Assembly (NCBI GenBank): GCA_030264375.1
Contig: JASCQW010000132.1
Location: 57,631,729-57,695,728 of the forward strand
Direction: 5' to 3'
Length of the DNA: 64,000 bases
Origin: Carcharhinus longimanus
Taxonomy: Eukaryota
The number at the start of each line of letters is the position of its first letter. Within the stretch, counting starts at the first letter, position 1. Made by a program: the position numbers and the translations under genes. This document shows positions 3,150-34,434 of this stretch, piece after piece. A model generated the notes under the pieces. The model did no database searches and was not told where the DNA came from. It saw only the letters and a list, made by a program, of their open reading frames with translations.

Positions 3150-3440
3150 ATTATTCTTCTTGTTTTGTTTTTATTCCAATTCAATCCAACCAAGTCCAAT
3201 TCCAGTTGAGACATTCTTGATCCAAGCTGACAAGACAGGGCTCTCGCCTTGTCATGGCTTGATCTACATGATCCAAGCTGATTGGAGTAGGTGTAGCTCC
3301 TCCTACAAGGCTTGCTCTCATTTGCATTTTAGCCAAAAGGCCAAGATGCCGCTTTAGAAAAATTGCTTCAAATGAAGCTGAAATGTAACCTAATGACTTC
3401 AACGAAGTGCAGCATGTCAATACTACACTTGATCTTAGCC
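3150..3440 (-). mobile_element. U2 snRNA-headed retroposed element (SINE-like or U2/U2-targeting-LINE chimera)
   Basis: 3420-3440 reverse complement GGCTAAGATCAAGTGTAGTAT = U2 nt 19-39; 3329-3349 is about U2 nt 4-24 with 2 mismatches; degenerate (TTGGA)n plus AATAAAAACAAAAC tail. Confidence 0.6.
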
Positions 3441-14880: not shown

Positions 14881-15262
14881 CAATGGACTGACATGCATAC
14901 TCCTGAATTCTCAATATAGTGGCAAAGTCTCCATGCTGGACACTGAAATCTGAAAATTAATCTATGTGTAGAGATATTGTAAGTGCATTCAAGAAATATC
15001 TTCTGTTCAAAGAATCACAGAATCCCAAAAGTGCAGGAGGAAGCCAAGTGGCCCATCGAACCTGCACCAACAACAATATTTTCCTATGTTTTTTCTAAGA
15101 GATACCAAACAAGAAACATTCCTTACTGTACTTAAAATATCACCACATACAGTGATCCGAGGAATTTTTATATGTGACAAGCTTACAGAAGGGTAGCTCG
15201 GTATTCTGCAATAGATTTGATGCATCCAGGTATCTTATCAGGTGACTATCCAGTTAATTTAC

Positions 15263-16531
15263 CTTGTTGGCAGTCACTTCCAGAAGCCCTTTCAGTTTGT
15301 TCCTGGGCCCCTGGATTCGCACTGTTGTTTCCTTGCAGGGTGACATCTTTCTTGAGATGAGCGCCTTTATTTACAGAATTAACACGCGTTGGAATTGGGA
15401 CAAATGTAGGATCTAAGTCCATTATCAGCTTATTAAGTTGTTCAATTGACTGATCAATGTCCAGTGTTGGGGAAGTCGACAAATCTTGCTTTTTATCTCC
15501 CAACCCTGCATCTTCAGAAGGTTTGAGGTAAACCTCAGAAGGTTTGAGACCTTGATTTTCACGTTCAAACAAGACTTCGGGGCTTTGGTGGTCTGGTAAT
15601 TTACTGTCTCCTGATAGCGTATTAAGCCCCCTCTGAACAGCATCTCGACTGCTGGACCCTCTTGCTGGGGTATCAGGAAGTTTGGGCGTAGTTTGCGTTC
15701 TACTCTGATCTTCTCCAGTTCCCACCATAGCAAACCTCAAGTCATTTTCTGCTGGATAGGCGTACTGTTGGGCTGCAACCATTTGCTGTTGTTGCACCCA
15801 CGTCTGAGTTGAGTAGCTGCTCTGGTTATAACCCTGTGGCTGTGCTGACAATGAAGGGTTTCTTGGTCGTTGAAAGGTGTTCTTCCCCTCAGTAACGCCA
15901 ACAAATGTTCTGTCATACGCTGTTTCTGTGCCTATTCCAAGGTCAGGTACAAGAGCATTATGCAAATCATCTCCAGTGTTACTTCCAAAACCATCTGACA
16001 GCAAAGAATTCTGGCTGCTCTTGTGAAAACTGAAGTTTCCCAGATTGTTTGAAGGCTGGCCTTCTGAAGAGGAAAGTGTCCCTATGCTGTCCACGCTATG
16101 CAGATCATGATTTGGCATTTCATCATCTAAAATATCAGTCTCCCTGTCCTTGGCTTTCAGTTCACCATTCACATGGACCTGAACGGGTACAATGTGACGT
16201 ACTCCACTGTATTTTACTCTTGTTTCTGTCATTTCCTTCAGCTGTACAGAATTCTCCAGCCCAAATCCACTTAAAAGCCTGTCCAACTCAGCCTTCTCCT
16301 GCAGGCTTAGGCCTCGCTTAACACCCGGTGGCAAGTGCTCCTCTGTCCGATCTGTTCTTATGGAGGCTGTGGAGTTCCCAGAGTCACTGCTGACTGACAG
16401 AGTGTGGTCAATTTGGTCAGGTCCTGTAGTCGCGGGAGCACCACCACCAATAGGAATGTTGCCCTCAGAGGAACTTTTCTTTCGTACCTTAGCGTACAGA
16501 CTTCCATCAATTGGTCCTTGGGTGTGTGACA
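15263..16531 (-). CDS. TNS3: Tensin-3 large exon (V/SHTQGPIDGSLYAKVRKK...DIDQSIEQLNKLIMDLDPTF...SDCQQ/G), 1269 nt, phase 1->1
   Basis: Inside ORF 15246-16571; ttatcccag|TGTCACAC...CAACAAG|gtaaat; TNS3-type motifs EKAELDRLLSGFGLE, DRETDILDDEMP, SSQNSLLSDGFGSN, YSTQTWVQQQQMV. Confidence 0.97.
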
Positions 16532-19500
16532 CTGGGATAAGAAGGAACAAAAAAAAAGACTTATTAACCAAACGTTAATGGCATTAAACCACCAGTTATC
16601 AATGATACCAGAAACAGTTTGGAATTCTTGCTCCAACATTAGCTTAAACTCAATGGAAGGAAATATATGCTTTCCATTTTAATGGTGTGCAAAGATTGTG
16701 TTATCAAGAATATTTTCTTTATTTCCCAGCCTGATTTTACATCTATCAGTAATGTTCACTAACCTACTCTATTTGCTCAACATATACAAAAGACATATAC
16801 AGAAGACCTTTTTCTCTGCTGGGCTATATACACAAGCTTGGAGCATTACTCAGAGTTATAACCTTCAATTTATTTCATACTAAAAATATTTTTACCAGGA
16901 GTGAGTTTCATAGTTTATGCGAGCGTTCCTTATCAAAATATAAGTTGAAACTTGTTTTATCATTCAAAACTTTCCACATAGGCGCCTACCAGATGGTATC
17001 CATAAATAGAAAAAGTTGGATTCATTTTGTAAAATGTACCTATAAACAAAATAGGTCCTGGAAGCAACAAGCTATAACAAATGCTTTCACTAATGTAACT
17101 AACTACAATTTATTTGGGACTTCCTCGTTAGTGATTTGTCCAGCCAACCTCATGACTGGAGATAGTGATCATATTTTACCACTGGCGTATCCTCTATGAG
17201 TCTTGTGTAAAGAAGCAATCAAAGTGACAAGCAACTGATCTTTTCTTGCCCTCAAGGCACCATAGTTAAGGAATTACAACAGTCAAAATGACTGTACATA
17301 TTTTTGCTGGAGGGCATTGTTATTGTGTTACGGCACTGCACAAAAAGAGTACAGCATTTTCCTTATCTAATCAGAGTTCCCAAGATTTCCAAATAGCATT
17401 TTATTTTCTATTTTGTTATCTGCAGCAGATAATCCTTTGCAATTCCATACAATCAATAGTATTTATGCTTTGCATACAAATACAAGCAAATACCATGAAA
17501 GCCAAAAGGACTTATCTTCTAAGGATTTACAATTATTGGTTTAATTCTTAAACTCAGTATATTCTTCAGCTGTGTCTCAAATGTAGTAGATTGACACGAT
17601 GTTCCCTGTATTTAGCTACGTAGTGAGTGACTTAAAGAACAATATCGTGCAGGCAAGATGCAAGGTCTGAGCCCTGCTGTGCATTAGAAGTCAGCTGATG
17701 ACAAGATTCAACTGTGATGCCCTCCACAGCCATAGTGTCTGCTGATATTTAATGTGCTAGCTCATGGAAGACTAAACACTTGAGTGCAGTCTTCTAAGGG
17801 CTGCTAGCAAACTGCACAACATGCATTAGCATCGTAAAACACGGGAGAAAATTGAAAAAAATTAGCCAAATAGAGTTAATCTGTCATAAACCGCAAGGAA
17901 AACATTAAATCAAAGCCTTTTAGTTTAGGACACGGTTTCCTTTTCCTCTAAAGAAAATATTGCCACATAGTGCAAGGTCTTGAGCAATATGAGCTGCGAA
18001 TCGTGTGGATTGTAAACATCACCTGCTACCTGTCCCCTAGATGGCATTATTCTGCAGTTAATGAACTTTACAAGAATTACTATCTTGTGCTTCCCTTGCA
18101 AATACTGACTCATACAAATCATTTTCACCTGCTCTTGCGTTCACAACAAATAATACAATCCTGTGGAAATGGGTTTCCATATTGAGAATCGGGTACATTT
18201 TCTTCAATGTACTTCTATAGTGAAACTACGTTAGTCAATTTGCCTCATTTCATCTCACAATTCTCCCTCATTTAGTAACCAAAAACATTTCATTCCATAT
18301 TGGACAGAGACAAGAGTTTTAATGTCTTTTATACTTACAGGTGATATTCAGGTAATATTCACAGCATGGAAAATACTGACACATTCCAACATTCTACAGA
18401 ATGAAGAAACAAGTCAATTCTCTCCAAATGTGCACTTTCACAATTCCGTATACATGTAATGAAATTATAGATTAACCAAGTTCAAAGATCTTCACATTTC
18501 AACTAACATCAGAACAAGTCTGTCATATTCAATTAGAAAAACTGACCTCAACGTCATCAAAACATTGGACTGAAATGAGTTAAAAAATATCTGTTCTCTT
18601 GCTGCTGTGCTGTACTCCTATTTTCTTTAATCCTTTACTGTCTGGGATGTCCTGCCACAAAACCCACACAGGACTAGATAAAGGCATTTCAAGCTGATAA
18701 CATGTCCTATAGCTTTCCTTCTGCCACTCATTCAACACTAGTAAAAATAGGGGCACATTGATTCCAGCTAGGTAAACACATCTGGGCTTCAACCATATGC
18801 TATCCCTACTTGCAATCAGCACAAAACTCACAGTAAGAATTGATCCGATGAGGTGGTGTGTAGTTCAGAGAAAGCAGCTAAACCAAACGTTTTGAAGAAC
18901 GACTGCACACTGAGGCAACTCTGGGCTTGTTCAGAACTACATTCCTTTTCGCAAGAAAGTGTTTTTTTTAAACTTTGCCTTTGTCCCATTTTTCATGCTA
19001 GTACTCCCCTACCCCCAAATACACGAGCTTCGATCGTCACTACCTATGTTAATACAAGCAACTTACCTCTCACACTGTGTTTCATTACTGCAGGTATTCA
19101 AAGTTCCTCTAAAGACTGCAGCTTCAGGAACAATCACTGCACTCCAGGCTTATGGTGCAACAACAGTGTTGGAATGGGGCCTTATTTTTCATTACACTCT
19201 GCGCTTTCCTCCCACTGAAGGTGACTGGTCTTACAAGATATGCATNNNNNNNNNNCAGACTTCACACTGGCCAAATATGGCAATGGAAAATGTAAACAAG
19301 GGGGCGGGATTTCATGTGTGTGTTCAAGCTAGCTGCAGGCACCAATGGAATTTATGCTTACTGATTGAAATCATACTACATATAATTTGGTGACTGTGTT
19401 GAAGGCATTCATTTTGTTAACTCAGTCCAGCTGTTCAGTCAGAATTCTCAACAGCCTTGAGCAGGCAGGTTCTAACTAATAAGGATAATAACCCTGAAAT

Positions 19501-21519: not shown

Positions 21520-22860
21520 TTGAATTCATTTATGGGACATGGGCATTGCTGGCTCAGCCAGCCTTAACTGCCCATCCCTAATTGCCCTTGAAAAGATGGT
21601 GGTGAGCTGTCTTTTTGAACTGCTGCAGTCCCTGTGGTGTAGGTGCATCCACAGTGCTGTTAGAGAGGGAGTTCCAGAATTTTTATCAGTGAAAATGAAG
21701 GAACAGCAATACATTTACAAGTCAGGATGATGAGTAACTCAGAAGAGAACTTGCAGGTGGTGGTGTGCCTGCTTTCCTTGTCTTTCTCGATAGTGGCGAC
21801 CATGGGTTTGGAAGGTGCTGTCAAAGGAATCGCGGTGAGTTCCTGCAGTGAATTTTGTAGATGGCACACAGTGCTGCTCCATTCATCGGTGGTTCAGGGA
21901 ATGAACATTTGTAGATGGGTGCCAGTCAAGCAGACTGCTGTTCTGAAAGGTGTCAAGCTTCCTGAGTGTTGTTGGAGTTGTACTCACCCAGGCAAATGAA
22001 GAATATTTCATCACACTCTTCGCCTGTGCCTTGTAAATAGTTAACAGGCTTTGGGAGTCAGGAAGCTAGTCCAGTTCAGATTCTGGTCAATGGTATGCCC
22101 CAGGATGTTTAATGGGGGACTCAGAGAGGGTAATGCCACCCAATGTCAAGGGGCAATGGTTAAATTCTGGTCATTGCTTAGCACTTATGTGGTGCAGATG
22201 TTATTTGCAACCTGTTAGCTCATGCCTGGATTTTGCCCAGGTCTTGCTACATCCAAACACGAGGAGTCATGAATGGAGCTGAACATTGTACAGTCATCAG
22301 AGAACATCCCCACTTCTGACTTTATGATGGAAAGAAAGTTACCGACGAAGCAGCTGAAAGTGGTTGGGGCTAGGACACCACCCTGAGGAACTCCTGCAGT
22401 GGTGTCCTGGAGCTGAGTTGATTGACTACCAACAACCACAACCATATTCCTCTGTGTGAGGTATTACGCCAACCAGCAGAGGGGTTTCCCACTGATTTCT
22501 GTTGACTCCAATTTTGCTAGGACTTCTTGATGCCACACCCGGTCAAAGGCTGTCTTGATGTCAAGGGTTGTCACTCTCCCCTCACTTCTGAAGTTCAGCC
22601 CTTTTGCCCATGCGTGAACCAAGGATGTAATGAAATCAGGAGCTGAGTGACCCTGGTGGAACATCCATGAGCAGGTTATTACAAAGCCAGTGCTGCTTAA
22701 TAGTGCTGTTGGGGACCCCTTTCATCACTTCAGTGATATCCAAGAGTAGACTGATTGGACAGTAATTAACTGGTTGGACTTGTGCTGCTTTTTGTGTACA
22801 CGACATACCTGGGTAATTTTGCACGCAGCCAGATAGATGCCAATGTTGTTTGGCTAGCAG
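21520..22860 (-). mobile_element. LINE (CR1/L2 group) 3' half, decayed RT
   Basis: Minus-strand ORFs give NYCPISLL, LDIKTAFDRVWHQ and AGVPQGGVLAPTTFSCF..MFSDDCTMF; tail GGGCAATTAGGGATGGGCA...GTCCCATAAATGAAT. Confidence 0.88.
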
Positions 22861-33553: not shown

Positions 33554-34037
33554 ACACAATTGGACACTTTTAGAGCAATACATCCCTGTTTTTAGACAAA
33601 ATGCATGCATTTGTAAATTTTTCAAACTTCTCAGGCCTCCCAACATCATATACCATTCATTGTGCGGATATCACATACCATTTATTGCGCTGAAAGGAAG
33701 CAACTAAATACATCAATGCTCAATTTTCTTGCATGCTTGTTTTAACAGGGTTATGTTTTTAAATCTCAAACTCAAAAAGACTTAAAAAAATAATGAATCT
33801 TGCAAGTGAATCATGATGATTGATACTGACACAGGCAGGTCCCTGTCAGTGTTGCTCTCTAATGGATTAACGTGGGGGTGTAAAAAAAAACAAGCAAGAG
33901 TCGCAGACCTTGCAATTTTACTTCCTCTCTGTAGCAAAGTTCTCCCAGACTGTAAAGAATGAAAACTCACAGTCAAGTACTATTTGACTTTTAGACTGCA
34001 TTTAAATTTGAGACACAATGAGGTTTGATCAATGTAC

Positions 34038-34167
34038 CTTTATTGGCATTGTCCAGGTCATCCTTCCCAAACACAAACCCAAAACCTTGGATCGAGCCTG
34101 TGTGAAACTGTAGCCGGAATATAACATCCCTCGTTGCAGAACGGTACTTCTTGTGGTAGCATTTAAT
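34038..34167 (-). CDS. TNS3: Tensin-3 exon, C2 domain ([43 protein letters not shown]), 130 nt, phase 0->1
   Basis: ttggttacag|ATTAAATGC...AATAAAG|gtacat; lies within ORF 33991-34215. Confidence 0.97.
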
Positions 34168-34434
34168 CTGTAACCAAGCAATTTTCTCATGCTGAATATA
34201 AATACCAATGATCAAATTACTTCAATACTTAAAATTATAATGTACACACTCCACAAGGATATAAAGGAGAATCAAAAACAATTATATTTACCAGGTTGAT
34301 CTCAAAAGCTGAAAAACTATATCCTAGTGTGCAATTGCTTCCCTGATAGACAGTCCTCCCTGCAGTTCCACTGCCTTTGAAAGGCAAATGTTCCGACTAC
34401 AGTATGACAAATACAAGTGCAAACTATATATTGA

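Follow-up and report, generated by a model that had tools for sequence, protein, structure and literature searches.

A SINEU-type retroposon family built from U2 snRNA segments in the shark Carcharhinus longimanus and its likely U2-headed LINE partner

Judged from its sequence, the element near the start of the 64,000-nt stretch of Carcharhinus longimanus DNA analysed here (the window) belongs, as a decayed copy, to an abundant family of non-autonomous, SINEU-type retroposons. The family consists of dispersed, non-coding, A-tailed units of ~310 nt. We consider it probable that this retroposon comprises about three U2 5' segments, is transcribed in U2 genes and is copied by a LINE that itself carries a U2 head. 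The evidence comes from the anatomy of the element, from copies of SINE and LINE that lie inside U2 genes and from U2 upstream DNA that was retained by some copies.

The features of the window copy, called against the U2 gene of the same genome (locus L031), are collected in Table 1. This copy is 89.6% identical to the majority of 30 family copies and has lost the 3' arm of its last hairpin (H6) by deletion. A preliminary description of this DNA had placed here a U2 head of nt 19-39 with the branch-point recognition sequence, a second U2 piece, an octamer, a repeat pair and a tail. All of these were recovered at the same coordinates, the head proving to be the 5'-truncated version of a fuller one. 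Examination of the flanks revealed no clear target-site duplication for the window copy, Rfam gave a single chance match to SNORA7 on it (E 0.77) and the two minus-strand frames that cover the element had no Pfam match. The sense orientation in a tensin intron that had been proposed is fitted by a minus-strand PTEN_C2 (tensin-type) exon at 33994-34221, detected in a Pfam scan of 148 of the 331 minus-strand frames of the window. A 442-aa open frame on the same strand (15249-16574) has no Pfam match; together with the PTEN_C2 exon it is consistent with a minus-strand tensin-family gene. Broken fragments of a LINE reverse transcriptase lie at window positions 22218-22721, likewise on the minus strand.

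Table 1. Features of the U2-derived element in the window
Feature	Position	Strand	Remark
Whole copy, U2-built SINE-like retroposon, young subfamily	3151..3440	minus	5'-truncated by ~18 nt
U2 snRNA head, nt 19-39	3420..3440	minus	compared with U2 gene of same genome
GTAGTA, branch-point recognition sequence, within head	3421-3426	minus	
Antisense arm, predicted pairing to U2 nt 12-39 (hairpin H1)	3389..3415	minus	
Small hairpin H2, then T5-6 run	3365..3378	minus	U2 nt 61-110 or U4 nt 19-47, both borderline
Second U2 copy (nt 4-24), remodelled to extended stem-loop I (H3)	3324..3349	minus	
Second U2 piece itself, nt 4-24 with 2 mismatches	3329-3349	minus	
Octamer ATGCAAAT, overlapping H3 3' arm	3320..3327	minus	
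Twin hairpin H4; old-subfamily 3' arm aligns to U2 nt 30-65	3270..3317	minus	0-1/500 shuffles
Twin hairpin H5; 3' arm opens third U2-derived unit (nt 39 to ~105)	3219..3264	minus	
Hairpin H6 5' arm, aligning to U2 stem IIb	3203..3212	minus	
Pentamer-repeat tail, AATAAA (3170-3175) and A-rich 3' end	3151..3202	minus	
13-nt direct repeat, two copies	3218-3230 and 3269-3281		

The element is not single-copy; its body recurs throughout the genome in two subfamilies. Used as a query, the 291-nt window element retrieved 2565 first-look candidates, and scoring the best 40 of these gave 39 non-self matches with 86-91% identity across 266 nt or more. A 25-nt motif of the body matches exactly at 1138 places in the genome (556 + 582; control 0), and as 18 of the 30 top loci have preserved it, the young copies would number about 2000 or more. 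For the older subfamily the genome search returned 1340 candidates. The old and young majority sequences are 79% identical (21% divergence), and mean identity to the own majority amounts to 93.6% for young and 87.6% for old copies. Full copies keep U2 nt 1-39/40 at 100% identity to the U2 of the same genome. A perfect head of U2 nt 1-40, unlike the truncated one of the window copy, is present in 17 other copies, and all 17 begin exactly at U2 +1 and are embedded in unrelated flanks. A script found clear target-site duplications (12-16 nt) at three of the 30 top copies (L012, L015 and L029), and inspection by eye recognised them in L106, L114 and L147. The duplications expected of a SINE are thus borne out in these six copies; they were not found for the window copy and are not visible in most older copies. 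An all-against-all comparison among the flanks of 30 copies themselves showed no common immediate flank. High copy number, constant architecture, a common A-tail and the duplications of several copies support the earlier suggestion of a U2-headed SINE family. Extra pieces of U2 nt 1-46/56 were observed 5' of SINE or LINE heads at L016, L024 and L158, resembling the 5' extensions known from SINEU-2.

Some copies of the family are located inside U2 genes, at a position used by known retrotransposons: according to the available passages of PMC4640811, U2 nt 38/39 is the insertion site common to Keno and Utopia. A pattern search of the genome identified four SINE copies that end in poly(A) and continue directly into U2 at nt 38/39 (control 0), and these insertions fall in two U2 variants. 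Our census covered 30 of the 31 exact U2 nt 39-60 sites, some of which are possibly assembly duplicates: 21 keep the U2 5' part, two follow a SINE tail, three a LINE tail and one another A-tail, and the remaining three are headless. At L091, a copy has been inserted into the head of an older copy at the same U2 position. Dispersed insertion sites are not enriched in a U2-like motif (TCTGT at 1 of 87 sites, p=0.21, by a script that missed some ends), hence the target preference is weak. Further arrangements at U2 deserve mention. At L208 (1400-1500), an A-tailed insert of unrecognised family sits at U2 nt 38, with a tail that resembles the old SINE and a body that differs. U2 pseudogenes whose sequence begins at nt 37-39, without a recognisable insert upstream, occur at L196, L200, L223, L051 and L057. 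At L059 (2066-2226, minus strand) a SINE copy continues into U2 nt 38-188 and has a full 5S rRNA copy directly joined to its U2 head.

Seeded from a U2-site insertion, a LINE was recovered whose ORF1 has ZCCHC3-type RNA-binding domains and whose ORF2 has an APE-type endonuclease and a reverse transcriptase, with matches to PF03372 and PF00078 that lie below the curated cut-offs and in broken frames. By this domain content, rather than by phylogeny, the LINE belongs to the L1/Tx1 group; a homologue search returned two unnamed matches. It is inserted before U2 nt 38/39 at L061, L063 and L065, and most of its copies lie elsewhere. At six of eight LINE 5' ends, a stretch of U2 that reaches to nt 35, in two cases from +1, precedes an antisense arm of the LINE's own; one of the remaining two is truncated and the other is cut by a SINE. 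SINE copies adjoin the LINE directly upstream of its 5' end in two of eight cases and directly at its 3' end in three of 11 LINE loci; at one of these three the LINE itself lies within the head of an old SINE. The link to Keno drawn in the preliminary description gains substance from the SINE insertions at U2 nt 38/39 together with this U2-headed L1/Tx1-type LINE. Its alternative idea of a read-through into the 5' end of such a LINE found no support: beyond the U2 head and the antisense arm, SINE and LINE show no similarity in body or tail (best E 0.66). Nor do they have a common 3' tail beyond AATAAA/poly(A), so that the partnership rests on common sites, common heads and nesting.

The lack of a common 3' tail would also agree with mobilisation of the same SINE family by another LINE, be it Utopia or one of the L1 or CR1/L2 type, the U2-headed LINE being merely a fellow user of the site. 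We regard this as unlikely, since tails of poly(A) and duplications of 12-16 nt are, as is well established, in keeping with the L1/Tx1 group, and since the SINE and the U2-headed LINE nest mutually and are built to the same head-plus-antisense design. Utopia does use the same U2 site and its reptile families are only weakly specific, as stated in the available parts of PMC4640811, and the insert at L208 demonstrates that another A-tailed sequence of unrecognised family has reached this site. On the other hand, no shark appears among the Utopia hosts listed in Table 1 of PMC4640811. The likely agent that mobilises the SINE family is, in our assessment, the U2-headed LINE of the L1/Tx1 type.

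The body of the element had been described as unique. This view had to be revised, as the body opens with a stretch antisense to the head and consists of decayed U2 in its 3' half. The 27 nt that follow the head (body nt 43-70) are antisense to it and predicted to cover the branch-point sequence. This arm is Watson-Crick paired in the old subfamily and G.U-rich in young copies, in which three A-to-G changes convert pairs of the head hairpin to G.U and none is broken; across 41 aligned copies 96.6% of the cells of this hairpin are paired. All three of these stem changes are A-to-G opposite U, as duplex RNA editing would leave, a speculative observation. In the old majority sequence the 3' arm of H4 aligns to U2 nt 30-65 (0-1 of 500 shuffles as good), and the 3' arm of H5 together with the last hairpin and the tail aligns to U2 nt 39 to ~105 (0-24 of 500 shuffles, depending on the U2 variant); the aligned segments were chosen after an unbiased local test that gave 1 of 300 shuffles for two U2 variants. 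In the young majority sequence the U2 signal of the body has faded (38 of 500 shuffles). These alignments lead us to regard the element as about three remodelled U2 5' segments. The assignment of body nt 55-82 is borderline, with 20 of 28 matches to U4 (0 of 300 and 6 of 300 shuffles, among ~24 tests) and an equally weak alignment to collinear U2 (9-206 of 500 shuffles).

The element is predicted to fold strongly, with z values against shuffles of -6.5 for a good copy, -2.6 for the window copy and -5 and -6 for the two majority sequences. The twin hairpins H4 and H5 have an identical base, and their upper stems differ yet stay paired. Stems change less than loops between the subfamilies (20/134 vs 26/96, and 24/149 vs 23/80; p ~0.03), and in the last hairpin a T-A pair is swapped for C-G (16 vs 11 copies, 11 mixed). 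About half of the stem pairs that changed between the subfamilies are broken, and covariation over the 41 copies does not rise above shuffles (69 of 500). Modest support for selection on the modelled fold is thereby suggested.

Strong folding, twin hairpins and slowly changing stems would also be expected if the copies were processed pseudogenes that stem from a structured variant of U2 RNA, encoded by the host and with a cellular function. Some copies score above the cut-off of the Rfam U2 model, and words of the element occur, in part or whole, in 20 sequencing runs from 12 studies that are labelled with nine organisms, one run possibly being that of the source sample; both observations would fit such an RNA as well. 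None of the runs is listed as RNA, and six that are tentatively taken for RNA contain 0.21-0.33 of the words. However, the copies form successive subfamilies (21% divergence) with AATAAA and poly(A), they were inserted into U2 genes and into their own heads, and the loci retrieved included no gene copy that was near-invariant and had its own promoter. We therefore hold an origin from a host RNA to be improbable and continue with the reading of the family as retroposons.

The octamer had been put forward as an snRNA distal element. Little speaks for this role: it is present in 20 of 22 young copies and 2 of 18 old copies and is thus a late by-product, half of it is formed by the 3' arm of the extended stem-loop I, and no site resembling a proximal element accompanies it. 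The scan of the element for a proximal element returned best scores of 3.6/6.4, compared with 8.7-14.3 for seven of ten left-out gene sites; as the other three gene sites also failed the crude matrix, this test is a weak one. Head-to-tail tandem stacks of copies occur at six of 29 old-subfamily loci. The younger copy lies upstream in seven of nine readable stacks, with one contrary and one ambiguous case, and at L177 four copies with an identical spacer between them follow each other, the youngest first. Generic reuse of A-rich sites can also explain tandem stacking. In the Drosophila element HeT-A, a 3'-located promoter drives the next tandem copy. By analogy, the 3' part of each shark copy could act as promoter for the copy that follows in the stack, the octamer serving as distal element, for tandem stacks are frequent, the octamer is positioned ~180-200 nt upstream of the next head and real snRNA genes in this genome have octamer-like sites at -211 to -283. 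Yet the absence of the octamer from 16 of the 18 old copies and the low proximal-element scores, weak as the matrix is, make this very unlikely, and of the 17 full-head copies L114 alone has element sequence upstream.

Rfam scans over the element detected U2 only and no tRNA, 5S or 7SL head, and with A and B boxes absent or loose a Pol III SINE derived from tRNA, 5S or 7SL was rejected. An ordinary Pol III SINE could nevertheless have acquired an internal promoter from A- and B-box look-alikes in its U2-derived sequence, and two loose B-box matches (GWTCRANNC) are indeed found at positions 141 and 194. A strict GTTC B-box is missing from the element, and three T runs (T4 at nt 15, T6 at nt 97 and T4 at nt 120) that are conserved in both subfamilies would stop Pol III. 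Runs and boxes together argue against Pol III and render this explanation highly improbable; the same argument from T runs has been made for SINEU in the accessible text of PMC4494074.

Transcription from a U2 promoter is suggested by loci that combine the end of the tandem variant-U2 spacer with U2 +1. A genome search for this pattern yielded four matches (control 0), and all four loci are interrupted at nt 35-40, by a SINE at L247 and L248, by the LINE at L249 and by poly(A) alone at L246. As the pattern was designed from L246 and L247, the other two constitute independent cases. The spacer homology reaches 110-220 nt past the searched motif, with scores of 81-207 vs shuffle maxima of 40-50 for five of six pairs, and in two of the loci the U2 3' end precedes the spacer. 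L248 comprises spacer, head, body and poly(A) but lacks the 3' part of U2; a 5'-transduced retrocopy from a source inside a U2 array would look like this. These spacer-flanked loci have diverged, and we infer that the spacer served as an active promoter. Among the loci fetched there was no intact source copy inside a gene with a recognisable promoter, and no U2 promoter was seen in the upstream flanks of the 17 perfect-head copies. As far as can be read from sequence, the data suggest that SINE and LINE are promoter-less and borrow the U2 promoter.

The notion that the copies arose independently as U2-chimeric retrocopies by template switching and form no family, which might be drawn from the variable U2 5' extensions of a few copies (L016, L024, L158), has a negligible probability and is ruled out, since over 1000 copies have a constant head-body junction and architecture and the subfamilies are set apart by diagnostic changes.

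The retroposon transcribed in U2 genes and copied by the U2-headed LINE could operate as follows. A source copy would reside in a U2 gene at nt 38-40, and the Pol II transcript would start at U2 +1, cross the body of the element and stop at its poly(A) signal. Now and then a transcript would begin in a tandem U2 unit further upstream and take spacer DNA along. In the transcript, the antisense arms would fold over the U2 branch-point and U6-pairing region, a fold predicted to stop the element RNA from acting as a faulty U2. The head hairpin may double as a recognition signal, because the LINE head forms a hairpin of the same kind. Endonuclease and reverse transcriptase of the LINE would then insert the SINE, mostly at unrelated sites that start with A, where copies would have no promoter and would be dead, the window copy likely among them. 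Occasional landing in U2 or in U2-like heads would renew the source copies and build up tandem stacks. Going further, and with somewhat less than even confidence, we propose that SINE and LINE constitute a pair living on U2 genes that arose independently of the crocodilian SINEU, both transcribed from the U2 promoter and both silencing their captured U2 branch-point region by antisense arms, with the SINE as a trimer of remodelled U2 segments that offers new landing sites to either partner.

SINEU is, to our knowledge, the sole SINE class in the Repbase scheme whose head derives from a Pol II snRNA, that is, without an internal promoter. The shark family is a member by the features tested, namely a U2 head, a non-coding unit of <500 bp with poly(A), amplification as a unit, LINE-type duplications and no internal Pol III promoter, and it is likened to the crocodilian families by description and not by sequence homology. 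As far as the available text of Kojima 2015 (PMC4494074) goes, SINEU-1, -2 and -3 were found in crocodilians only, target Mariner-N4_AMi and have Tx1-Mar LINEs as partners, and the question of how SINEU is transcribed was left standing. The same text describes much that recurs in the shark: an snRNA-derived head, several U2 pieces, a length of <500 bp, poly(A) and internal T runs. Its account further includes copies inserted in tandem about a duplication, some copies lengthened 5' by additional U2 sequence, and a partner of Tx1 type with a U2 head of its own (Tx1-11_Crp). In contrast to the Mariner-N4_AMi target of SINEU, the shark family prefers U2 nt 38/39 and U2-like heads. It also retains U2 upstream spacer DNA, shows no U1 part and has an antisense masking that does not feature in the SINEU description as far as available (PMC4494074).

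Comparison with other U2-associated sequences leads to similar distinctions. Keno is a U2-specific member of the Tx1 clade (passages of PMC4494074 and PMC4640811), and the shark LINE resembles it in its APE-type endonuclease, its reverse transcriptase and insertion before U2 nt 38/39 (PMC4640811, in part), whereas it is mostly dispersed and has a head of its own made of U2 nt 1-35 and an antisense arm. Utopia, a member of the NeSL clade, uses the same insertion site and is weakly specific in reptiles; unlike the shark LINE with its APE-type endonuclease and two ORFs, it has a restriction-like endonuclease and one ORF (PMC4640811, in part). U2 processed pseudogenes (RF00004) are likewise retroposed, U2-derived and numerous in the genome, but the shark family differs from them in that its U2 segments are reiterated and remodelled and join non-U2 sequence at a constant junction, and in that it has a poly(A) signal and was amplified as one unit. 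We found no U2-headed SINE from cartilaginous fish in the literature searched; subscription papers, Repbase Reports and Dfam lay outside this search and may list the family.

Several other U2 sequences of this genome were noted in passing. U5 and U2 genes alternate in tandem at L034 (1121-2636, with a ~1045-nt period) and L032 (470-920), and these units have an octamer at -248 of U2. The small contigs L046, L047 and L048 have in common a 190-nt leader, U2 nt 1-160 and a repeat tail; the leader contains what we take to be a tRNA-like box, and the unit may represent a further repeat family with U2 content. The U2 genes on the small contigs L033 and L058 diverge strongly, one of them standing beside a histone 3' stem-loop, and possibly originate from a contaminant or parasite. 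Many U2 retrocopies (L035-L039, L057 and L200) have a common 3' extension of ~35-50 nt past the mature end.

Copies that pass the Rfam U2 cut-off can inflate counts of U2 genes. Self-masking provides a testable reason for the tolerance of an abundant RNA that contains the U2 branch-point sequence. The present findings extend the SINEU class to a distant lineage and lend genomic support to a specific route of SINEU transcription, with sources inside U2 genes at the Keno site and U2 upstream DNA carried along. If true, an independent SINE-LINE pair on the U2 promoter would answer the question of how snRNA-headed SINEs are transcribed.
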